Assembly (NCBI GenBank): GCA_965246745.1
Contig: OZ251980.1
Location: 1,444,280 to 1,508,279, forward strand
Origin: Capsulimonadaceae bacterium
GTDB lineage: Bacteria; Armatimonadota; Armatimonadia; Armatimonadales; Capsulimonadaceae
Length of the DNA: 64,000 nt
Direction: 5' to 3'
Shown here: positions 30,992 to 45,288 of the stretch, piece after piece
Numbering within the stretch: position 1 is the stretch's first letter
How the letters are laid out: every line of letters begins with the position of its first letter
The notes under the pieces: model-generated
Told to the model about the DNA's origin: nothing
Database searches by the model: none
What the model saw: the letters and a program-made list of their open reading frames with translations, nothing else
Program-made: the position numbers and the translations under genes

Positions 30992-33010
30992 CTATTTCTT
31001 GTCGGCGACTGCCGCCAAGGGATAGGCGGCTGCGCCGGCGGGCGGGGCGGCGGTCGGCTCGGTTTCGGCGAGGGCGTCGGCGATGGCTTGGAGGGCCTGC
31101 GGGTTCGACGCCAGGGCGTTGGCGATGGCGTCGGCCTGCGCGGGGCTGGTGCCGCTTTGGCCGGTCATCTTTTCAATCGCGGGCGTCAGAAGCCGCCCGA
31201 GATTGCCCAAGAGCGTGTCCACTTGGGACGCCCCGCTTGGAGAATGGCCGTTGCCGTTGCTGCCATCGGCGGGCGACGATGCGCCGCCGAGAAAGCCTTC
31301 GGCCATGGCGCGGATGCCGAAGCCTTTGGCCATGTTGTCCATCATCTTTTGCGCGGTTTCCGGCGTGCCGTACAGGGTCATGTTGCCTTTCGATAAAAAC
31401 AGGCCGAGGGCGCGGGCGAATTCCTGCTGGACTTCCTTGTCGGCCTGAATTCTCAGTTTTTCGATTTCGAGGCGGATGCCCGCTTCGGCGAACTCCTGGC
31501 GGTTCGCGAGCTGGTTGCGCTCGACATCCACCCGCGCCTGCTCGACCCCGACATTCTCGCGGGCCACTTCCACCGGGACAAGCTGCTGCGCCCGCTCGCC
31601 CCGCGCGACCAGCTCGCGCGACTGGGCTTCCGCCTGGGCAAGCTGAAGGCGAGCCTCGGCCTGCTTGGCGGCGGCTTCCTGCTCGCCCTGGGCATTGGTG
31701 ACGCGGGTAAACGCCGACACCTGCGCTTCGGTCTGCTGGCGGATTTTGTCGCGCTCGATTTCCTGACGCGCCGCGATCAGCTTTTTGTTGGCGTCGCGCT
31801 CGGCTTCGGCGATCTGGGTCACGGTGATGACCTCTTGAGTCGCTTTCTCCTGCGCGGCCTGGGCGATGAGGGCTTTTTCTTCGGCCCGCGCCCGCTCGGC
31901 TTCCTGGTTGGCGACAGCGATCTGCTTGAGGCGCTCGGCCAGCGCCACGGCCTGGTCGCGCCCGACGGCTGCCGTTTGGAGTTCCTGCTCACGGGCGATG
32001 GTGGCGGTCCGCACGGCTTTTTCCTGACCGACGCGGGCGACTTCGACGGCCTGCTGGCGGCCGATTTCGGCGGTCTCGACCGCCTGCTGCTTTTCAATCT
32101 GCGACGTTTCCACGGCCCGCTGCTGGGCGATCACCGCCTGCTGCGATTCTTGGTCTTTGCCGGCCCGGATTTTGGCAATTTCGGTGCTTTGGTTCGCTTC
32201 TGCCTCAGCCTGGTTGCGCTCCAAGTTCAGAATATACTGACGCGTGGTCACGTCCTGGTTTTTGCGGGCCTGCTCCGCCGCCCGCTCCAAGTTGTTGCGC
32301 TCGACCATCGCCGCTGCCGTGATTTCGGTGATTTTGCGCTTGCCCTGGGCATCGAACACGTTGTTGTCGGACAGCTCCGACGGGTCGGTCTGGTCCAGCT
32401 CGGAGATCGTAACGCTTTCCAAAAGCAGGCCGTTTGCTTCGAGGTCCGACTTGACATGCTCTTTGACCCGCTCGGCAAACTCGTCGCGCTTGGTGTGAAT
32501 CTCAAACAAGTACATCTGCGACGCAATGGCCCGCAGCGCGGACACCAGTTTCTCGCTGACCAGGTTCTCGACATTTTCGGCGTTGACCGAGTTGTCGCCG
32601 AGCGACCGGGCGGCGTTCAGAATATGCTCCCGATCCGCTTGGACGCGAATATAAAACTGAGCCAGAATATCCGACCGCAAATTGTCGTGGGTAATCAGCG
32701 CATTCGGCCCGTGCGGGTTGACTCCGAGCTTCATCGTCCGCAGATTGACTTCGGTAATCCGGTGGAAGATCGGAATGACGAGCGCCCCGCCGTCGAGCAC
32801 GACCCGCGAGCCGCCCTGCCCGGTCATCACAAACGCCTGGTCCGCCGACGTTTTCTTATACAGCGAAGTCCAGACCGTGATGACCAGCCCCAGCAGAAAC
32901 AAAATCAGGCCGGCGACGCCGAGCACGGCCTTGCCGGCGAACCCAATCACCGGCAGAAACAGCGGGCCGACCATCAAGGCCGCACCGGCGATCAGCAAAG
33001 CAGCTCCCAT
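30992..33010 (-). CDS. Flotillin / SPFH (band 7) family protein, YqiK-like
   Basis: 672 aa. It has an N-terminal TM segment, an SPFH domain, and a long E/A/Q-rich coiled coil (…AEAEANQSTEIAKIRAGKDQESQQAVIAQQRAVETSQIEKQQAVETAEI…). GC is high, so it looks native. Confidence 0.85.
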   Translation of the reverse strand: MGAALLIAGAALMVGPLFLPVIGFAGKAVLGVAGLILFLLGLVITVWTSLYKKTSADQAFVMTGQGGSRVVLDGGALVIPIFHRITEVNLRTMKLGVNPHGPNALITHDNLRSDILAQFYIRVQADREHILNAARSLGDNSVNAENVENLVSEKLVSALRAIASQMYLFEIHTKRDEFAERVKEHVKSDLEANGLLLESVTISELDQTDPSELSDNNVFDAQGKRKITEITAAAMVERNNLERAAEQARKNQDVTTRQYILNLERNQAEAEANQSTEIAKIRAGKDQESQQAVIAQQRAVETSQIEKQQAVETAEIGRQQAVEVARVGQEKAVRTATIAREQELQTAAVGRDQAVALAERLKQIAVANQEAERARAEEKALIAQAAQEKATQEVITVTQIAEAERDANKKLIAARQEIERDKIRQQTEAQVSAFTRVTNAQGEQEAAAKQAEARLQLAQAEAQSRELVARGERAQQLVPVEVARENVGVEQARVDVERNQLANRQEFAEAGIRLEIEKLRIQADKEVQQEFARALGLFLSKGNMTLYGTPETAQKMMDNMAKGFGIRAMAEGFLGGASSPADGSNGNGHSPSGASQVDTLLGNLGRLLTPAIEKMTGQSGTSPAQADAIANALASNPQALQAIADALAETEPTAAPPAGAAAYPLAAVADKK

Positions 33011-33036
33011 GTGTTTTCTCCTCTACAGTGAACTTC

Positions 33037-33720
33037 TTACACAATGCTTTCAACAATCAGCTGGTCGCGGGACGCATCATAGTCCGCGATCAGCACGCTT
33101 CGGCCCCGGCCAATCGCTGCCTGCCCCGGCCCGGTCCGGGCGGACACATCGTGCAGCGACCCGTGGGCATCGTAGACATGCACCCGCCCCCGCGCATCGT
33201 TTATGGGAAACACGACGGTTCCGGTCAGCCCGCAGAGGTCCACGGCGCTGACCGCAAACGACTCGTCGCCCGGCAGAAAGCGCGACACGGCCTCGACGGT
33301 CAGCTTTTCGGTCAGAAACGCCCCCAAAACCGCTGTCGCCAGCGCCGCCGCAAATGCCGCGCCGGGCGCAGGCAGCAGCTCGCGCCAAAGCGGCGTCCCC
33401 CAGAACCCGAAGACGCCCCAGCCGAGCAGAGCGCTCCCCCAGACCAGCGGCCCCGGCGCTCGCCCCAGCCCAAAAAACGCCGCGATTCCCGGCGCTCTCG
33501 CCGCCGACCCCGCGTGCTTCTGCCCGCCGCCGTGCTTGACGCCCCCGCCGTGCCGCATCCCGCCGCCATGATGCCCGCCCGTGCCGTGGTGCCCTGCGCT
33601 GTGGTGCCCTCGGTGCATCCCGCCGCCGAGCGCCGACAGCAGCAGCACGAGCAGCGCGGCCCCGCCCGGCAGCGCGTACATCAGTTCATCCCAGCGCCCG
33701 ATTCCCGTCCAGTCCGTCAT
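33037..33720 (-). CDS. NfeD-like / YqiJ-like membrane protein, partner of flotillin
   Basis: It has N-terminal TM helices, a His/Gly-rich loop, and a C-terminal OB-fold-like region (GTVVFPINDARGRVHV). It lies immediately upstream of the flotillin gene, as in yqiJK. Confidence 0.65.
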   Translation of the reverse strand: MTDWTGIGRWDELMYALPGGAALLVLLLSALGGGMHRGHHSAGHHGTGGHHGGGMRHGGGVKHGGGQKHAGSAARAPGIAAFFGLGRAPGPLVWGSALLGWGVFGFWGTPLWRELLPAPGAAFAAALATAVLGAFLTEKLTVEAVSRFLPGDESFAVSAVDLCGLTGTVVFPINDARGRVHVYDAHGSLHDVSARTGPGQAAIGRGRSVLIADYDASRDQLIVESIV

Positions 33721-33911: not shown

Positions 33912-34390
33912 TCTTGCCCCGTGGTTGTGTTTCCCTACGACCTGCCGCGCCGCCCGGAGCCGAATCGATTCGTCGCTGCGTTTCCCGGCGAGACTGTGCT
34001 GCAATTCCGCCACCATGTTGTCCAGCTTAACCGCCTGCCGTGGCGTAGATTTATCCGCCAGGAAAACCCGGTGGCAAGCGCACTCATGGCGAAGATGAAG
34101 CAGTACGAACGCGCCATTGAGCAGTTTATGCCGACAGAAAGAACATCGTGGAAATCCTGACCGACTGGGAATGTAAGGGTATCGCACAAGGCATCGTGGA
34201 GGGCATCTCCCAGGGTTTGACGCAGGGCAAAGAAGCGCTGGTCGTTCCCCTGCTCCGCCGCCGCCTCGGCCCCGACACTCTCACCGCCCGCCTCGACACC
34301 CTCACCGCCGCCCATCTCGACGACCTCGGCGAAGCGTTGTTGGACTTCCGCACCGCCGCCGATTTACAGCAGTGGCTTGACCGGAATTAG
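33904..34390 (+). pseudogene. 3' remnant of an Rpn-family (PD-(D/E)XK) recombination-promoting nuclease / putative transposase gene (DUF4351 C-terminus), frameshifted
   Basis: Two adjoining frames encode ...AKMKQYERAIEQFMPTERTSWKS and EILTDWECKGIAQGIVEGISQGLTQGKEALVVPLL...LLDFRTAADLQQWLDRN. The QG-rich repeat followed by a helical tail is typical of DUF4351. A second 3' fragment (…LLDFRTIADLEQWLDQH) lies at about 35430-35497. Confidence 0.5.
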
Positions 34391-34405
34391 CGCAGCAGCG
34401 GCCTG

Positions 34406-34645
34406 TTAGACTTGATCATAAGCCGCCAAGAACTCGTCCCGCGAAATCCCGCTCTGGGTCAAAACCGTTCGCAGCGTAGACCCCTTAATCACTTTGTGGT
34501 TCGGCAATGTCAGTGGAGTCCTACTCCCATCGGCGTTCTCCCGCAGAAGCGCCAGATGATTGCCTTCCCGCACCAGCCGAAACCCCAGAAGCGCCAGCGC
34601 TTTGATCACCTTCTCACGCGGCGCATCCACCGGAAAGCGCGGCAT
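34406..34645 (-). CDS. hicA: HicA-family mRNA interferase toxin
   Basis: 79 aa. The segment KVIKALALLGFRLVREGNHLALLRENADGSRTPLTLPNHKVIKGSTLRTVL matches the YcfA/HicA fold pattern. Confidence 0.75.
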   Translation of the reverse strand: MPRFPVDAPREKVIKALALLGFRLVREGNHLALLRENADGSRTPLTLPNHKVIKGSTLRTVLTQSGISRDEFLAAYDQV

Positions 34646-34869
34646 CAGGCCGCCACCGCAAGCTCGGCGACAAAGGCTTCCAGCACCGGCGTTTCGGTTT
34701 CAATTACGTCCGGCCCGAACGTCTCCAAATGAAACGCAATCGCCGACTTCACATCCGCCAGCGCCTCCTCATACGTCTCGCCTTCCCCCACCACACCCCC
34801 CGCAATGCCGAGCGGATACGCCACATACCCGTCGCTGTGCCGCTCCACCACAATCTTAAACTGCCTCAC
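34645..34869 (-). CDS. hicB: HicB-family antitoxin (UPF0150)
   Basis: 74 aa. The segment FKIVVERHSDGYVAYPLGIAG…GETYEEALADVKSAIAFHLE matches the HicB N-terminal domain pattern. Confidence 0.75.
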   Translation of the reverse strand: MRQFKIVVERHSDGYVAYPLGIAGGVVGEGETYEEALADVKSAIAFHLETFGPDVIETETPVLEAFVAELAVAA

Positions 34870-35143
34870 GTTTCGCCTCCTCCAAGTGGCCCTTTCCTGC
34901 CCCGTAGGGCGTAGGGCATGCCCCTACCCTCCTCTCCGGGTCAAGAAGCTGCGTCAAGCCTGCCCGATACTCCGTAAGCACTTCCTCCGCCAGCCGGACC
35001 AGAGCCGGTGACGACTGCGTAAAAGATCGCTGCCAGCGCTGCTCGTCTTCCAGTTCTTCTAAAATCAGAGCCGCAATCGCATCTTGATCGGGTTCCGCCA
35101 GTTGCTGCACCTGAGCATAAGCGCGTTCTAATAATTGGGTCAT
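34856..35143 (-). CDS. hypothetical acidic helical protein (antitoxin-like)
   Basis: 95 aa with no motif recognised. It is overlapped by the hicB start. Confidence 0.3.
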   Translation of the reverse strand: MTQLLERAYAQVQQLAEPDQDAIAALILEELEDEQRWQRSFTQSSPALVRLAEEVLTEYRAGLTQLLDPERRVGACPTPYGAGKGHLEEAKREAV

Positions 35144-35181
35144 CTCAAAGCCTCACAATATCTCATCTGCGGCAGGTTCCC

Positions 35182-35340
35182 CTATTCAATCCGGTCTGCC
35201 GGCACCCGCAGGGCAAGCACCTGGGCGCGAACCACGGACTCCGACCGCCTCTGACCATAGGCAAGCCCCCTCGGCAATTCAGGAACTTCACTCAGCCACC
35301 GGCCATCTTCTTCTTGTTCGACTTCAATGGAAAGCGGCAC
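35182..35340 (-). CDS. small HicB-like (UPF0150) ORF that is not in the ORF track (under 60 aa, GTG start)
   Basis: Reverse-complement translation gives MPLSIEVEQEEDGRWLSEVPELPRGLAYGQRRSESVVRAQVLALRVPADRIE. This matches the HicB N-terminal consensus (IE.E.EEDGRW.AEVPELPGC.A.G.T.EEA...). Confidence 0.45.
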   Translation of the reverse strand: MPLSIEVEQEEDGRWLSEVPELPRGLAYGQRRSESVVRAQVLALRVPADRIE

Positions 35341-35593
35341 AATTTCACCTCACAGACAAGATAACGACATGATACCCGGTCTCTTCTTGGTCTTGATGAC
35401 AAGAAAGCGAATGCCAGACGCCCCAGTGCCATCGCTCACCGCCCTTCTCGACTTCCGCACCATTGCCGATTTAGAACAGTGGCTTGACCAGCATTAGCGG
35501 GGAGTAATCGAGAGGCTTTGGTTAAGCTGGCCCACCCGTGTCGGTGTAGCGCATTGTTCGACCGCAAATAGCGCTCGCAGCGTGTTTAGAGAG

Positions 35594-36328
35594 TTACTCT
35601 GGTTGCCTCTGTGTTATGAGAAAGTCATCGGTAAGCTCTTCAATGGGTAGATAGGCTCTTATGATAGCAAAAGCGTCTGGTATAGTAATCTGCCCATCTA
35701 TACGAAAATGCTTCGTGTAACCTGTTCCCTTAATTTTGTTCCCGTCTGCAAACAGACGCAGTTTGTCTTCGGGGCTAAAAGATATAGTAGCCCCGTCCAG
35801 ATGAATAAATGTAGTCGCGTCAGGTGTCAATCGACCATGTACATAAAAAACCTCTGGCGATTGTGCAATATCTTCCCAAGCTTCTAATTCAACTGCGCTA
35901 TCTTTCCGGTCTACTGCGATGTGAACGAGGAGATCTGCAACAAAACCAGTAGCGCTAAATCGCTCAGGCATAGGAACCTGAAACCTAGCCTTTATCAGTT
36001 TTTGCAGGCGTACCTCTTGTAGAGCACGCTCAAAAGGCACTCCATACAATGTCGCACGGCCCATGATTGGAGGAAAAGCCTTTACGCTTATAGCTGCCGC
36101 TTCCCATAGGTCAAGCTTTTGGACAAGAATATCTACGACTCTGTTGATATACGGGACAGGGTAGACCTGAAAATCGCTTCGATGCTTTAAGTGTAGCGAA
36201 TAATCTGCGGCCTGCTGCTGATGCACAATCCTTAGATCATTGGCCTGGACAAGTCCATCGTGATTTAGAAGTTCTGAAAGTGTGACAGCATTTTGTCTTC
36301 GCATTCTTTGTTGCTCTATCTTATTCAT
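35594..36328 (-). CDS. hypothetical protein (244 aa) with no recognisable domain; last gene of the AT-rich three-gene operon
   Basis: GC is about 42-45%, against a ~69% host. It shares the minus strand with the two ORFs upstream at short spacing. Confidence 0.5.
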   Translation of the reverse strand: MNKIEQQRMRRQNAVTLSELLNHDGLVQANDLRIVHQQQAADYSLHLKHRSDFQVYPVPYINRVVDILVQKLDLWEAAAISVKAFPPIMGRATLYGVPFERALQEVRLQKLIKARFQVPMPERFSATGFVADLLVHIAVDRKDSAVELEAWEDIAQSPEVFYVHGRLTPDATTFIHLDGATISFSPEDKLRLFADGNKIKGTGYTKHFRIDGQITIPDAFAIIRAYLPIEELTDDFLITQRQPE

Positions 36329-36439
36329 ATCGATTAGGATTTACACGGTTGAAGCCAAACCAAGAGATTTTAATGCCTTGTTCTCGCGATTCTACTCAAA
36401 GATCGCATGGAAACATCCAGCGAAGCAAGCATTGGAGTA

Positions 36440-36730
36440 TTAGACCCAGAAGAATAACTTTATGATAAGATCACAGAAGGCCTGTTTACGAGCCAGCTTG
36501 TCGGCTTCGATTTTTCTTAGGCGCTGACTTTCCTCTTCCGCAATGCGAGATTCTTCTCTAACCGCGTCTTTGTACGCCCGGTAAGCAGGATCGGCTGCTT
36601 CCCGTTCCTCCTCTTTTCTTATCTCAGCTTCCCGGTAGGCTATTTCACTTGCTCTCACGCTGTCGCGGATAGCGTTTTCAGTTAATGAAACGGCTTTCTT
36701 AATTGCCCATTTTGCAATAGGTCCTATCAT
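36440..36730 (-). CDS. small hypothetical protein (96 aa): amphipathic charged helix plus a C-terminal hydrophobic tail (FCDLIIKLFFWV)
   Basis: It is the middle gene of the AT-rich operon. Confidence 0.4.
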   Translation of the reverse strand: MIGPIAKWAIKKAVSLTENAIRDSVRASEIAYREAEIRKEEEREAADPAYRAYKDAVREESRIAEEESQRLRKIEADKLARKQAFCDLIIKLFFWV

Positions 36731-36757
36731 TAGCAGGTCTCGCTTTCTATTGAAGCG

Positions 36758-37969
36758 TTAAGGTAGTGTCTGAGGTATGAGCAGAAATATATTTGCAGCC
36801 TGCCCTTTAGGGGCATTTTTAGGCCGAAGTTGTTGCCACTCGTTTAGGCTGATGCCTGTTTGTTGAAGTGCCGCAACTTCGTCCCGGTATGCTTCAAACC
36901 GCCTCATGTCCTCAATAACGCCTTCTGCCTTCGTGAGCAACTCCGGCAAAGTTTGGGCGTAATACTCTTGCTTCTTCACTCTATATTCTTTTATTTTCTT
37001 TCTTGTCCTGTTCACTGCATCCTTATTGGACGCTACTTCAATGTTCCAGTATGTAACCTTGGCAAAGGCGGAAAAGCCTGTCTGGGCCTGGGCCTGAGCT
37101 TGATTATTTTTGCTTGAGATAAGTATATTCTCAACCCTCTCCAATTCCGCTTGTTGTTTCTTGCAGATATCTGAGTCGGATGCCTTCACAGATGACATTT
37201 CAAGTCTTCGGACATCTTTTTCCAAAGAATCTTCAAGCCGCCATATCCTAGCCACGAGGTCTGTGCATTGAGATAAGTCTATACACCATAGATGATTTGT
37301 ATCGAAAGCTGTATATTTCTTCTTCAAGTAGGCATGCACAAGTGTTCTCATGGTTTCAGAATACTGCTCTAGCTTTGATGTAGCAAGAACCATTTCGCCT
37401 AGTTCTATATGGCATCTAATTTCGGCAGTATAAGCGAGGAACAATGTCGAAATCAGCTTGTCTGCAATCTCACTGCCGGCAGCGATCTGGGCATCGCATT
37501 CTGCCTCGAAATAATGCTGTGCCTCCAACATACGATTGACCGCGTGAGTTGCAGTAATTCGCTTTGTGTCCGGGCTTTGCGTCATCATTGCATCGTTCGC
37601 TTGCCGAATTGCGGCCACAAAGTTTCCATAGAAACTCAAATCAAGTTTTCGATCTATCTGGGTTAAGAGAGCATTTTGTTCGGAGATGGACGTTTCCAAA
37701 AGCTTGATGCGGTTGAGAATGATTGTAAAGCCCGTCACAGAAACACCAAGATTAAGCACACCTACGACATCGCCAAACTTCAACAATCGCGAGGCTGAAC
37801 TAAGCATCTGTCCTGGTGAGACCTGAGTAAAGTCAGTTTCGCGTAGCCAGGCAACAACTGATTTAGAGTCAACTTCACGAATGACACCGCCAACTCTCTC
37901 ATAGTTGCCATTGTCTAAGCCATTCGCAATCCAATCGGGTATCTGAAAAACTGCTTCAACTGTATTCAT
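36758..37969 (-). CDS. hypothetical protein (403 aa), mostly alpha-helical, with one N-proximal hydrophobic segment (VVGVLNLGVSVTGFTIIL); first gene of the AT-rich operon
   Basis: GC is about 42%. No family motif was recognised. Confidence 0.5.
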   Translation of the reverse strand: MNTVEAVFQIPDWIANGLDNGNYERVGGVIREVDSKSVVAWLRETDFTQVSPGQMLSSASRLLKFGDVVGVLNLGVSVTGFTIILNRIKLLETSISEQNALLTQIDRKLDLSFYGNFVAAIRQANDAMMTQSPDTKRITATHAVNRMLEAQHYFEAECDAQIAAGSEIADKLISTLFLAYTAEIRCHIELGEMVLATSKLEQYSETMRTLVHAYLKKKYTAFDTNHLWCIDLSQCTDLVARIWRLEDSLEKDVRRLEMSSVKASDSDICKKQQAELERVENILISSKNNQAQAQAQTGFSAFAKVTYWNIEVASNKDAVNRTRKKIKEYRVKKQEYYAQTLPELLTKAEGVIEDMRRFEAYRDEVAALQQTGISLNEWQQLRPKNAPKGQAANIFLLIPQTLP

Positions 37970-38187: not shown

Positions 38188-38216
38188 TTGACAACCCTAT
38201 CGCTTCTTTGCGATAA
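38188..38216 (+). promoter_or_regulatory. sigma70-like promoter (TTGACA, 18 bp spacer, GATAAT) upstream of the XRE gene
   Basis: The sequence is ttgacaaccctatcgcttctttgcgataatg. Confidence 0.5.
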
Positions 38217-38222
38217 TGCCCC

Positions 38223-38525
38223 ATGCCGCACACTACCAGCGACGCCGCCGAAATCATGGACATTGAGTTCGGCGCTGACCCCAACTATCAGAAGATTCGC
38301 GCCGAGCAGCGGATCAAGTCTCAGGCGGCGCAGGCGATCTATGACGCCCGCACTGCCGCCGGGCTGTCCCAAACCCAGCTTGCTAAGATTGCCGGGACGA
38401 CGCAATCCGTAATCTCGCGCTTGGAAGACGGCGACTATGACCGGCATTCGCTGGCGACACTGGGACGGATCGCCGCCGCGCTGGGTCGCCGGGTGGAAGT
38501 GCTTTTTGTTCCCATCTTGCCGTGA
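38223..38525 (+). CDS. XRE-family helix-turn-helix protein (HigA/antitoxin-like)
   Basis: The HTH is LSQTQLAKIAGTTQSVISRLEDG. Confidence 0.7.
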   Translation: MPHTTSDAAEIMDIEFGADPNYQKIRAEQRIKSQAAQAIYDARTAAGLSQTQLAKIAGTTQSVISRLEDGDYDRHSLATLGRIAAALGRRVEVLFVPILP

Positions 38526-38609: not shown

Positions 38610-39410
38610 GTGGTTTACGAATGCGAAAAATGCAATGTGCCGCTACCGCCAGGAGTAAGAGCTTGCCCAAATTGCGGGGAAGCTTTTGATGATGTAGTGC
38701 CGGCTGATGCTGAAGTTCCTCAGCGTGGTTTTCGTCCCAGCAATGCTTCGGCAGGTTCAACACAATATCAAGCGCCAACGCCGCCGATGCCTCAGCCTCC
38801 AAATCCTATTCCGGTTTATGCCGCCCCCGCAACCACTACCCCTGCTCTGGCACGGGGATGGGTGATGGTCCTTACATTCCTCTTCTGCTTCCCGCTGTTT
38901 ATTATCGGTGTTTGGCAACGGCCCGATTGGTCGCGTGGCGCAAAGGCTTTGGCGACTGTTGCTTTCGTTATCATGCTATGTATAATTGCCGGCATCAACA
39001 ATGCTACAAGCAATAATACTTCTCCATCCTCATCTTCAGCGCCGTTGATGCCAACGCAACACAGCCCAAGTTCAGCTAAGTACAGTCCACCTGCGGCACC
39101 GGACACAGCACCGTCTCCTGCACCTGACGCCAGTGATACAGAATCAAAGCCGGATTTAGAAGTAATAGATCACAAGTCGGTCTCAGAGGAATATGGGCGC
39201 TCAGTTGTTGGCACAGTTCGCAACAACACGGACCATAATTACGGTTACGCCCAAGTAGAGATCAATCTCTATGACAAAAGCGGAAGTCAAGTCGGGTCTA
39301 CGGTCGCCAACATTAACAACTTAGCACCCCATAGCCTCTGGAAATTCAAAGCTCCTATCTTAGAAGATAGTGCAGTTCGCTTTGAGATTAAAGATGTAAC
39401 AGGGTTTTAG
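38610..39410 (+). CDS. zinc-ribbon, TM segment, FxLYD-domain protein
   Basis: The N-terminal C-x2-C…C-x2-C ribbon is CEKCNVPLPPGVRACPNCGE. It has one TM segment and a Ser/Pro-rich linker. The C-terminal region YAQVEINLYDKSGSQVG carries the FxLYD motif. Confidence 0.55.
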   Translation: MVYECEKCNVPLPPGVRACPNCGEAFDDVVPADAEVPQRGFRPSNASAGSTQYQAPTPPMPQPPNPIPVYAAPATTTPALARGWVMVLTFLFCFPLFIIGVWQRPDWSRGAKALATVAFVIMLCIIAGINNATSNNTSPSSSSAPLMPTQHSPSSAKYSPPAAPDTAPSPAPDASDTESKPDLEVIDHKSVSEEYGRSVVGTVRNNTDHNYGYAQVEINLYDKSGSQVGSTVANINNLAPHSLWKFKAPILEDSAVRFEIKDVTGF

Positions 39411-42663: not shown

Positions 42664-45288
42664 ATGCTGCTGAAAGAAACATTGCTAGACTCTGGCTGGA
42701 ACCTTGCTCACACCGTGACGTTGCCGTCGCGTGAGAAACAAACCTTTGAGAGCAGCGGGCTGGCTTTATCCGAAGTGACCCACCGCTTTTTGGCAGCATC
42801 AAAGACTGGGCTTTACCTGCACCAGCGGGAGGCTGTGAGCAGGTTTCTTGACGGGTCGAATGTCTGCATGACAACCGGCACGGCTTCGGGGAAAAGTCTG
42901 CCGTTTTATCTTGCCGGCATTGATCAACTGGCGCGAAATCCCAGTTCCAAAATTATCGCTGTTTATCCGATGAAGGCGCTCGGCTATGAGCAGGAAGAGC
43001 GCTGGAAGCAGGCGCTGGCGCAAGCCGGACTGACCGCACACGTCGGGCGCATTGACGGTCAAGTCTCGACAAAAGCACGGCCGGAGATTTTACGCCGCTC
43101 GAGCGTTGTGATTTTGACGCCGGATGTCATTCACGCATGGCTCTTGAACAATCTCGGCGACAAAGCGGTCTTGACGTTTCTGAGGCAGGTCGCGCTGATG
43201 ATTGTTGATGAAGTCCACAGCTACACCGGCGTATTCGGCTCCAATTCCGCATTTTTGTTCCGTCGGCTTCAGCACGCGATGACTATGCTGCGAAGCAAGC
43301 CGAGCTATATCTGCGCGTCGGCGACAATCGCAAATCCGCAGGCGCATTTGGCAAAGCTGTTCGGCGCGGAGTTCGCGCTGATCGGCTCTGATTCGGATAC
43401 CTCGCCTCGCCATGCCGTTGAAGTTCAGCTCGCTACTCCTCGCCCAGAGGCTGATATGCTGTCGCAAGTGACCGATCTCCTACAGCAGATTGCCGAAAAA
43501 TCAGATTCCAAGTTTATTGCGTTTGTAGACAGCCGCAAGCAGGCGGAGCATATTTCTTCAATCCTGGCGCGAAGTCAGGACCAGTCACAGGACGAGGAGC
43601 AGGAGACGGAAGCGCATTTCGACTTTGACTTTCTGCGACGGCTGAACGTGTTGCCGTTCCGCTCGGGCTTTGAGGAACATGACCGCTCTATTATCCAGGA
43701 GCGGCTGAAAAGCGGCAGCCTGCGCGGCGTGGTCAGCACAAGCGCTTTGGAACTCGGCATGGACATTTCCCAACTTGGGACGGGAATTCTTGTCGGCGTT
43801 CCACGCTCCTCGACCAGCCTGTTTCAGCGAATCGGACGCATCGGGCGTCATGGCTCCGGCACGGTGGTCATTGTCAACACCGGAACCATCTATGATGAAG
43901 CTATTTTCAGAAACCCGCAGGAGCTGTTAAACCGGCCGATGGCGGAAAGCTCGCTGTACCTAGAAAACACGCGAATTCAATATATTCATGCGCTCTGTCT
44001 TGCCCGTCAGGGCGGCGAACATGATAAAGTACGAAGCGCGGTCAGCGGGGAAGAAACGACGGAGATGGAAACAGAAGTCGCCTGGCCGGCCGGCTTTCTC
44101 GACATCTGCCGCCGTGAGCGGCTCGGCGAAGTGCCTGCCGATTTGCAGAATATGAAAGCAGAAGCCGGCGAGGAGCCAAACCATACCTTTCCGCTTCGGG
44201 ATGTTGAGAGTCAATTTAAGATTGAGTTCAAGCAAGGCCCGGAACAGCGTCAGCTCGGCGCGGTTTCGCACGGCCAAATGATGCGCGAAGCCTATCCCGG
44301 CGCAATTTATTACTACATCACTAAGCCTTACCGTATCTATAGTGTTGACATGCGAAGCCGCGTGATCCGCGCTCGCGCCGAAAAGCACTACACGACAAAC
44401 CCTCAGAACTTGCCTACCTGTGTCTTCCCGAACTTATCTGAAGGAAACATACACCGCGCCAAAAGCCATGATACACTTTCAGCGGTCGAGTGCAACTTGC
44501 AAATTCGTGAAGCCGTCTGCGGATACAAAGAGCGGCGTGGGCCGAACAAGGCTTTCCACGGATACCCCATACTATCAACGACTTCGGGAATTTCGTTCGG
44601 GCTAGATCGGTTTGTTCGTAACTATTTCACGACCGGCATTATCGTGACGCATCCTGCACTGAATTGGGACGGGGTTGACTGCAATTTGATGGCAAGCCTG
44701 ATTTATGAAGGGTTTTTGATGCTTGTTCCGTTTGAGCGTCAAGATATGGGCGTCGCTGTAGATAAACATCGAACCCCGCGCGAGGGAATCGAGCAAGGCA
44801 GCAAATTTATTGCTCTGCACGATCAGACCTACGGCAGCCTGCGCCTTTCGGGAAGGCTTTTGGAAGAGCAGTGGCTTAGGGGGACACTGGCGAAGGCAGT
44901 GGAGCTTTGCCGAGAACAAGAAGTCACGTCGGAACACCCAAACACGCTGGCAGCGCTTGAAGCAGTGTCCGCGTCGGCAAACCAAGCGGAAACCGCTTCT
45001 GTGTTCGGCACAGATAGTGCATCGGCGTCCGCACCGGAAGATTGTGCGCTGGTCATTTTGCCCGGCAGCCGGGGGCTAAAGATAGATACCGGTGCCGTGG
45101 AAGAGTTTGAGGTAGAAGATGTGTTTTATCATCCTTCGTTCAACGGATTGAGCTACCGGGGCAGACGACATTCCTTGAAGGGAGAAACGAGCAAAAATGT
45201 CGTTCCTATCTCTGCGCTAAAAGAAATCCCTGGAGAGAGCCTGATGGGCTACTACGATTTCAACACTGGAGAAATCGCGCCTATATAG
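42664..45288 (+). CDS. DEAD/DEAH-box superfamily 2 helicase, YprA/MrfA-like (probable C-terminal Zn-binding/DUF1998-like region)
   Basis: Motif I (TGTASGKSL), motif II (DEVH), motif III (SAT) and motif VI (QRIGRIGRHG) are all present. The C-terminal 300 aa carries scattered Cys residues. GC is about 50%, against a ~69% host. Confidence 0.75.
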   Translation: MLLKETLLDSGWNLAHTVTLPSREKQTFESSGLALSEVTHRFLAASKTGLYLHQREAVSRFLDGSNVCMTTGTASGKSLPFYLAGIDQLARNPSSKIIAVYPMKALGYEQEERWKQALAQAGLTAHVGRIDGQVSTKARPEILRRSSVVILTPDVIHAWLLNNLGDKAVLTFLRQVALMIVDEVHSYTGVFGSNSAFLFRRLQHAMTMLRSKPSYICASATIANPQAHLAKLFGAEFALIGSDSDTSPRHAVEVQLATPRPEADMLSQVTDLLQQIAEKSDSKFIAFVDSRKQAEHISSILARSQDQSQDEEQETEAHFDFDFLRRLNVLPFRSGFEEHDRSIIQERLKSGSLRGVVSTSALELGMDISQLGTGILVGVPRSSTSLFQRIGRIGRHGSGTVVIVNTGTIYDEAIFRNPQELLNRPMAESSLYLENTRIQYIHALCLARQGGEHDKVRSAVSGEETTEMETEVAWPAGFLDICRRERLGEVPADLQNMKAEAGEEPNHTFPLRDVESQFKIEFKQGPEQRQLGAVSHGQMMREAYPGAIYYYITKPYRIYSVDMRSRVIRARAEKHYTTNPQNLPTCVFPNLSEGNIHRAKSHDTLSAVECNLQIREAVCGYKERRGPNKAFHGYPILSTTSGISFGLDRFVRNYFTTGIIVTHPALNWDGVDCNLMASLIYEGFLMLVPFERQDMGVAVDKHRTPREGIEQGSKFIALHDQTYGSLRLSGRLLEEQWLRGTLAKAVELCREQEVTSEHPNTLAALEAVSASANQAETASVFGTDSASASAPEDCALVILPGSRGLKIDTGAVEEFEVEDVFYHPSFNGLSYRGRRHSLKGETSKNVVPISALKEIPGESLMGYYDFNTGEIAPI

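Follow-up and report, generated by a model that had tools for sequence, protein, structure and literature searches.

Three closely spaced, AT-rich genes in a GC-rich bacterial genome raise the question of whether they form one system or have come to lie side by side through separate events. The locus considered here lies at positions 35594-37969 of what we call the window, the whole stretch of 64,000 nucleotides that was analysed, taken from contig OZ251980.1 of a Capsulimonadaceae bacterium (Armatimonadota). It consists of three co-directional minus-strand open reading frames (ORFs) of 403, 96, and 244 amino acids (aa), named gA, gB, and gC in the order of transcription, with short spacers of 27 base pairs (bp) between gA and gB and 111 bp between gB and gC. 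An initial annotation made from the sequence of the window had described them as a foreign operon of three genes with no recognisable domains and as a candidate novel defence or accessory system. The reading frames and their foreign composition are borne out: guanine-cytosine (GC) content is 44.8% in gA, 46.7% in gB, and 44.6% in gC, against 60-73% in most 1-kb windows beyond the island. Whether the three genes belong together is a different matter. On balance, we favor a composite locus, made up of an intact stand-alone effector gene resembling the anti-phage gene jukB (gA), a decayed small membrane partner (gB), and an unrelated passenger (gC).

gA belongs to a large conserved family

Although gA is a member of a large family, this family has no Pfam or NCBIfam model. 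There are about 50 homologous clusters in a 90% database, 232 relatives in reference contigs representing one genome per species, and 1,397 clusters at 50% identity in an exhaustive profile search; an exact-sequence look-up of the gA protein of the window returned no record. Among 80 reference loci with gA, 57 are cyanobacterial (mostly Nostocales), 16 belong to Chloroflexota, and 3 to Armatimonadota. Comparison with four relatives gives a ratio of nonsynonymous to synonymous substitution rates (dN/dS) of 0.10-0.22, and this purifying selection identifies gA as a real gene rather than a chance ORF. The GC content of gA is likewise low in its relatives (0.44-0.46), which implies that the cassette is older than the divergence of these lineages. 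A second Capsulimonadaceae genome (L084, 7001-8735) has a divergent gA-type gene encoding 348 aa, 28% identical to gA and overlapping a 232 aa unannotated gene by 11 bp; it represents a second gA subtype in the same bacterial family, with a downstream gene of its own.

The family alignments and an AlphaFold2 (AF2) model of gA (predicted local distance difference test score, pLDDT, 82; predicted TM-score, pTM, 0.80) agree on a protein with conserved ends (coordinates in Table 1). The N-terminal beta-module (R25, G27, G28, and R43 invariant, R31 nearly so) is modeled as a three-stranded sheet with strands at residues 23-26, 29-32, and 38-44. A variable linker, disordered in the model, separates this module from a Gly/Ser-rich hydrophobic helix with a hydropathy of 1.56 over residues 66-84 and invariant residues L72, L74, and G80, which is the candidate membrane-inserting element. 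Beyond it extend long helices containing an invariant R185-C186 pair, followed by a C-terminal helix in which E353, R357, and E364 are invariant and by a short modeled strand that may complete the N-terminal sheet. Distant relatives keep both the N-terminal module and the C-terminal helix, and the middle of the protein varies.

gA is remotely similar to JukB

The closest characterized counterpart of gA is a component of the Juk (jumbo phage killer) system, which in Pseudomonas aeruginosa PA14 protects against nucleus-forming jumbo phages. Here JukA, a Cbp3-like sensor with a DUF3944 N-terminus, senses phiKZ-like phages through one of their early proteins and recruits JukB (10.1101/2022.09.17.508391, PMC13434031, PMC13282480). 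JukB forms tetrameric pores that permeabilise the early phage infection vesicle; the cell survives, and the defence is reported to be non-abortive (PMC13434031, PMC13282480). The JukB family is small and comes mostly from proteobacteria, cyanobacteria, and chloroflexi (10.1101/2022.09.17.508391), a range that matches the taxonomic spread of gA in the latter two groups.

Each of the three proteins was scanned against Pfam, NCBIfam, and PHROGs and has no significant family there, so the statement that the locus lacks recognisable domains holds for these libraries. The sole library signal for any of them is a weak match of gA to the PADLOC JukB model (E=0.0018), and it is for gA that the statement fails when its family is taken as a whole and a structure model is considered. 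Across the family, the JukB model (PDLC04114) matches 34 of 36 members, with a best E value of 3.7e-11, and 63 of 113 diverse representatives, with a best value of 4.8e-11; among the 5,027 PADLOC models, many of which describe transmembrane proteins, it alone matches the gA family consistently. These matches fall in a fixed register on the hydrophobic helix and the segment that follows it (profile positions ~70-190 of 323), with profile positions ~100-137 always aligned to the helix itself. The fold tells the same story: a Foldseek search of the gA model against 350,542 chains has JukB (PDB 9jht, 'Jumbo phage Killer B') at the top, with a probability of 0.99 and nearly the whole chain aligned, and JukB ranks 1 and 2 in two independent structure comparisons, so that the gA model has the fold of the JukB crystal structure. 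The next structural matches are the alpha-pore-forming toxins AhlC, SmhB, and MakA.

Several observations weigh against this kinship. The match of the window gA itself covers residues 71-105 only, and throughout the family the hidden Markov model matches span only ~40-90 residues that include the hydrophobic helix. Neither of two gA family profiles (A1, A5) retrieves the JukB of strain PA14 from the PDB, even at E<=10, and a PDB sequence search with the single best gA member (P0029) yields noise and no JukB. The Foldseek scores are modest (E 0.027, TM-scores 0.29/0.40), and gA is ~130 residues longer than JukB. A JukA-type gene, by which we mean a gene for a Cbp3-like protein (PF03981) with DUF3944 (PF13099) in an operonic or adjacent position, is missing within 8-10 kb of the gA homologues in four contexts (L001, L002-4, L087, and L088). 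The 58 ORFs of the window show no PADLOC JukA match better than ~3e-10 among the best 25 families listed, which excludes strong matches only.

We conclude that the link between gA and JukB is one of remote similarity in both sequence profile and fold, and we think it probable that the two are truly homologous. Because the JukB scores plateau near 1e-11, we regard the gA family not as JukB proper but as its sister family in a common superfamily. JukB of Pseudomonas aeruginosa PA14 and gA share an all-alpha plan in which a hydrophobic helix precedes a helical bundle; their taxonomic ranges overlap in cyanobacteria and Chloroflexi, both occur in islands of defence and toxin-antitoxin (TA) genes, and both belong to a wider network linked to phospholipase and EcsC-like genes. 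They differ in that the JukB model matches neither the conserved N-terminal beta-module nor the C-terminal helix of gA, in that some gA family members have N-terminal fusions to an LRAT domain or occur as tandem paralogues, and in that gA has no adjacent JukA in the contexts examined. Residue R31 of PA14 JukB is essential, R31A abolishing immunity (10.1101/2022.09.17.508391); the conserved arginines of gA (R25, R31, and R43) lie in its N-terminal module, and the shared number 31 is no more than a lead. The alpha-pore-forming toxins of the tripartite or ClyA type (AhlC, SmhB, MakA, Hbl-B) resemble gA in having an elongated helical bundle, and they hide a hydrophobic element that inserts on oligomerisation. 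However, they are far weaker structural matches (Foldseek probability 0.2-0.75, TM-score <0.25), and they are secreted and target foreign cells, whereas gA has no signal peptide feature and lies in an intracellular conflict island.

gA homologues lie in variable islands and associate with lipid enzymes

Across the 80 reference loci, gA has no conserved operon partner. The neighbour clusters that do recur reflect Nostoc-specific synteny (chlN/chlL, TA pairs, XisH/XisI) and are not partners: the Nostoc gA locus lies beside chlN/chlL, in an island where PIN, YoeB/RelE-like, XisH/XisI, and HNH genes can be recognized by eye. Representatives of the gA neighbours match PADLOC models for AriA, AbiD, AbiEii, AbiLi, and BrxA as well as candidate PDC/HEC models. 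The homologues thus occupy variable islands among TA and defence genes, and the defence-island setting that had been proposed for the locus is shared by gA homologues elsewhere. We rejected the idea that gA is prophage cargo, as there is no gA in phage records (INPHARED) or in 2.9 million viral contigs (IMG/VR). The family was found once on a plasmid.

Some members of the family are joined to enzymes acting on lipids. An N-terminal LRAT domain of the acyltransferase/phospholipase type (PF04970, 5.6e-25) is present in several of them, and an LRAT/NlpC-P60-type domain with the catalytic motif NCEHF is fused ahead of the beta-module in loci L048 and L085 and in proteins P0014, P0016, P0019-P0021, and P0027. 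Tandem gA paralogues or fragments occur in L085, L014, L073, and L079. Five Pseudanabaena loci (L067, L071, L074, L077, and L082) encode, ~30 bp downstream of the gA homologue, a protein of ~830 aa in which an N-terminal Lipase_3 domain (8.6e-19) and an EcsC-like region (2.1e-6) are separated by a low-complexity middle rich in Gly and Ala. The LRAT fusions together with this class-3 lipase/EcsC-like neighbour point to a membrane lipid as the target. Similar company is known for Juk: EcsC-like genes are found in putative operons with jukA, and JukA also occurs with other effectors, including patatin-like phospholipases (10.1101/2022.09.17.508391).

By analogy with JukB, and in view of these lipid-enzyme fusions, gA would be inactive in uninfected cells, with its hydrophobic helix held packed. 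A trigger may act on the conserved beta-module, either as a phage component or through a sensor encoded elsewhere, such as a JukA-type protein. The triggered protein would then oligomerise and insert its hydrophobic helix into a bilayer, either that of the cell or that of an early-infection vesicle derived from the phage, and this insertion would form a pore and stop the infection. In some genomes jukA and jukB lie at separate loci, and JukA is frequent in Nostocales genomes (10.1101/2022.09.17.508391). A bolder proposal, which we put forward tentatively and think rather doubtful, is that the gA family is a branch of the JukB superfamily that works autonomously, without JukA: its own N/C-terminal beta-module would sense infection directly, and its hydrophobic helix would form pores, sometimes together with an LRAT domain or a class-3 lipase.

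gB, a truncated gene for a putative membrane partner, is confined to close relatives

The co-occurrence of gB and gC with gA was assessed by tblastn against 86 gA-carrying loci. Among these, gB is found only in L001/L007, a single contig of the sister genome (a Capsulimonadaceae metagenome-assembled genome). A further relative, L089, has it as well, so that the gA-gB pairing is known from three close lineages, with a spacing of 27-70 bp. What follows gA differs among its nearest relatives. Downstream of the gA of L089 (75% identical to that of the window) come a full-length gB of 199 aa and a 42 aa remnant of a gene we call orf157; in L001 (gA 73% identical), a gB of 172 aa is followed by an intact orf157; in L090/L091 (gA 73% identical) this place is taken by a gene for an unrelated 171 aa protein that contains an HEFIH motif, and L005 (gA 67% identical) has another unrelated gene. 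The gene in L090 (1848-2363) and L091 (1718-2152) begins 4 bp downstream of gA and its HEFIH motif is HExxH-like; the slot after gA is thus variable. In L090, gA comes directly after a flotillin-like gene, whose counterpart in the window (78% identity to 31067-31246) is 4 kb away.

Only codons 1-81 of the window gB (36488-36730) are homologous to the full-length versions, with 85% identity to the gB of L089 and 50% to that of L001. Full-length gB (172-199 aa) has 2-3 predicted transmembrane helices and the window gB has none. The retained 81 codons have a dN/dS of 0.14-0.53, the lowest value being that against L089. From these features, gB may be a lineage-specific small membrane partner of gA, built from an N-terminal charged helix and 2-3 transmembrane helices. 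An obligatory pairing of the kind seen in type II TA modules is not found, as ~75 of the 80 reference loci have no conserved gene downstream of gA.

gC arrived on the segment that truncated gB

The breakpoint in gB marks one end of the segment that carries gC. In blastn comparisons with L001 and L089, the homologous stretch of the window breaks off at 36488/36489 (codon 81 of gB) and is picked up again at 35498, within the 3' end of a DUF4351 gene. The 989 bp between these points sit where the relatives carry the transmembrane half of gB and orf157, so this segment has replaced the 3' half of gB together with orf157. It contributes a new 15-codon tail to gB, the 111 bp spacer, and gC. The proposal of a three-gene operon is therefore not supported: gA, gB, and gC do not co-occur elsewhere, and gC came with the segment that truncated gB. 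None of the 86 gA-carrying loci has gC; its sole match, L006, is a locus that was chosen by its gC homologue and has no gA. Conversely, gA and gB are absent beside gC in all gC contexts examined.

The gC family comprises 17 clusters in a profile search, with invariant residues W151, F161, Y162, H164, H176, D178, K198, and F208. The sequence pattern suggests that this set is a catalytic or metal site, and gC, with its conserved His/His/Asp plus Lys/Arg set, is possibly an enzyme. Its AlphaFold model is poor (pLDDT 62), and a search of the PDB with the family profile (A6) gave noise only and no fold assignment. Where gC homologues occur, their surroundings differ: in L006 and L093 the neighbouring genes carry no annotation, in L094-96 the homologue stands at the end of a dynamin/WD40 cluster and next to an integrase/Prim-Pol element, and in L097/98 it adjoins HicAB; one homologue is on an IMG/VR contig. 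On the mobilizable plasmid ABRG53b of Pseudanabaena sp. ABRG5-3 (L100, 7001-9985), gC lies 7 bp upstream of a gene annotated as 'DNA phosphorothioation-associated putative methyltransferase' (Dnd), among DUF4007, XisH/XisI, MazF, and integrase genes, which gives the only hint that the family may have a functional neighbour. We rejected genes of 370-511 aa beside gC in L006, L093, L097, and L101 as a recurrent partner, since they are mutually unrelated and absent from the window.

We treat gC as an independent single-gene passenger. Its arrival recalls polymorphic toxin/immunity loci (CdiA-CT/CdiI, Rhs-CT), in which the conserved 5' part of a gene is kept and its 3' end is swapped between close relatives as a block with the next gene. 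Unlike those loci, however, gB is tiny, its new tail has only 15 residues, and neither a toxin domain nor a delivery apparatus is present; moreover, only one swap is seen. A simple insertion with truncation explains the exchange better than the replacement of a toxin cassette.

Alternative explanations

If gA, gB, and gC formed one novel defence system of three components, their common direction, close spacing, similar GC content, and position in an island that also contains TA genes and a helicase would all be accounted for. Yet the trio occurs in no other genome examined, the sister genome and the closest relative have a full-length gB and orf157 in the place of gC, the gC homologues have unrelated neighbours, and other close relatives of gA are followed by different genes, all of which renders such a system very improbable. 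A two-gene alternative fares better. Here gA would be a pore-former that depolarises the cytoplasmic membrane of the host, and gB, bound through its conserved N-terminal helix, would be a membrane-resident inhibitor or immunity factor whose truncation in the window alters or relaxes control. The maintenance of the gA-gB pair at 27-70 bp in three lineages, the constraint still acting on the first 81 codons of gB (dN/dS 0.14 against L089), the location among TA modules, and the alpha-pore-forming toxins among the structural neighbours of gA are all consistent with this idea. We nevertheless consider it unlikely: the ~75 of 80 gA loci without a gB-like or other conserved downstream partner speak against an obligatory immunity partner, gA stays intact beside a gB that has lost its transmembrane half, and canonical Juk is reported to be non-abortive and to act on the phage vesicle.

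The resemblance to JukB could also be spurious, arising from a generic hydrophobic helix and helical repeat, in which case gA might be a membrane-anchored scaffold similar to tetratricopeptide repeat (TPR) proteins, with a role outside defence, perhaps in the envelope or in the cell-cell biology of filamentous bacteria. In favor of this view, JGI labels some members of the family as TPR proteins, the profile matches cover short stretches in which the hydrophobic helix is included, and most of the family comes from filamentous Cyanobacteria and Chloroflexota. Against it, JukB alone among 5,027 PADLOC models is matched consistently and in a fixed register, two independent structure comparisons place JukB at ranks 1 and 2, and the patchy distribution, low GC content, island context, variable neighbours, and lipid-enzyme fusions fit a conflict gene better than a housekeeping one. 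We therefore judge a chance resemblance to be improbable.

Implications

Seen as a composite locus with a JukB-like effector, the island supports part of the initial proposal of a candidate novel defence or accessory system: gA is related to an anti-phage effector and lies in a plastic TA island, but 'novel' is too strong a word, as Juk is known and relatives of JukB have been reported in cyanobacteria and Chloroflexi. To our knowledge, no characterised defence other than Juk targets the membrane vesicle of early infection by nucleus-forming jumbo phages, and we know of studies of it in Proteobacteria only, always together with the JukA sensor. What remains is a divergent JukB-like family that has escaped the domain libraries, has lipase and LRAT associations, and has no JukA in the loci examined. 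If confirmed, a sister family of JukB that is encoded alone would widen the reach of the Juk-type mechanism and provide candidates for single-gene membrane-targeting immunity. Under the bolder proposal made above, the gA family would be a widespread single-gene membrane-attack effector of filamentous Cyanobacteria, Chloroflexota, and Armatimonadota, and this would hint that phages forming vesicles or nuclei, or another membrane-bounded stage of infection, are common targets in these phyla. The locus also holds a caution for annotation, in that common AT-richness and tight spacing mimicked an operon where comparison with relatives separates a conserved gene from a truncated partner and a recently arrived passenger.

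Neighbouring features of the island

Table 1. Coordinates of the island, of conserved elements within gA, and of flanking features in the window.
Feature	Position	Strand	Description	Basis
gA	36758-37969	-	403 aa; full length, intact; JukB-like alpha-helical protein, putatively membrane-active	
gA N-terminal beta-module	37835-37948	-	residues 8-45; GL..G.YERVGGVIRE..VVAWLRE	family alignments, AF2
gA Gly/Ser-rich hydrophobic helix	37706-37774	-	residues 66-88; GDVVGVLNLGVSVTGFTIILNRI; candidate membrane-inserting element	
gA C-terminal helix	36827-36925	-	residues 349-381; IED.RRFEAY..EV; then strand 394-397	
gB	36440-36730	-	96 aa; gene for a small charged-helix and transmembrane protein, truncated at its 3' end	
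gC	35594-36328	-	244 aa; orphan accessory gene, 17-cluster family	
Replacement segment	35499-36487		989 bp; new 15-codon gB tail, 111 bp spacer, gC	blastn vs L001, L089
Neighbouring insertion	34343-35499		1.1 kb; HicA, HicB-like ORF, 95 aa ORF, HicB-like fragment	repeat search, Pfam, L001 synteny
HicA	34406-34645			Pfam PF07927, 1.2e-9
XRE-family helix-turn-helix regulator	38223-38525	+	divergent from gA	Pfam HTH_3 3.8e-11, HTH_37
Helicase	42664-45288	+	874 aa; 54-56% GC	Pfam DEAD + Helicase_C

The flanking genes named in the initial annotation are largely supported by Pfam, which recognizes HicA, the XRE regulator, the DEAD helicase, and two DUF4351 (Rpn-associated) remnants (1e-15 and 3e-4). 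Both ORFs labeled as HicB-like, one of 74 aa and a second of 52 aa, have no significant Pfam match; HicB is a plausible identity for which only position and appearance speak. The segment containing HicA is bracketed by 50 bp direct repeats that are 86% identical (34343-34392 and 35450-35499, repeat family D1) and represent the terminal 3' part of the DUF4351 gene. The arrangement suggests either an insertion into the end of a DUF4351/Rpn-type gene or a duplication of that end, the gene being intact (332 aa) in the sister genome.

On the other side of the trio, the XRE gene is also found beside gA in the sister genome L001. The XRE gene beside gA in a third lineage (L002-L004, 6190-7690) is the antitoxin of a Gp49/HigB-type pair, accompanied by an unannotated 255 aa gene, and the XRE gene of the window may be an orphaned antitoxin of the HigA type rather than one that regulates gA. 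At 38188-38217 lies a promoter-like site with 11 of 12 positions matching; the promoter and terminator scan gave nothing informative for gA-gB-gC, and tRNA and Rfam scans of the island had no matches. The helicase, whose best PADLOC matches are SngC (6.7e-29) and BrxHI (6.9e-28), has no counterpart in the syntenic region of L001. It probably came in as an insertion of its own and may be a defence helicase that lacks its partners.

Two further observations concern the genes bordering the island. Between a gltD-like gene and the XRE regulator, the plus strand encodes a 266 aa protein (38610-39410), in which an N-terminal zinc ribbon and a transmembrane segment are followed by a linker rich in Ser and Pro and a weakly DUF3426-like C-terminus; it is not at this position in L001 or L002. 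On the minus strand, a membrane-microdomain gene pair (30992-33720) adjoins the island. It encodes a flotillin-like SPFH/Band7 protein of 672 aa, whose coiled-coil region is very long, and, ahead of it, a membrane protein of 227 aa that is rich in Gly and His and looks NfeD-like by eye.

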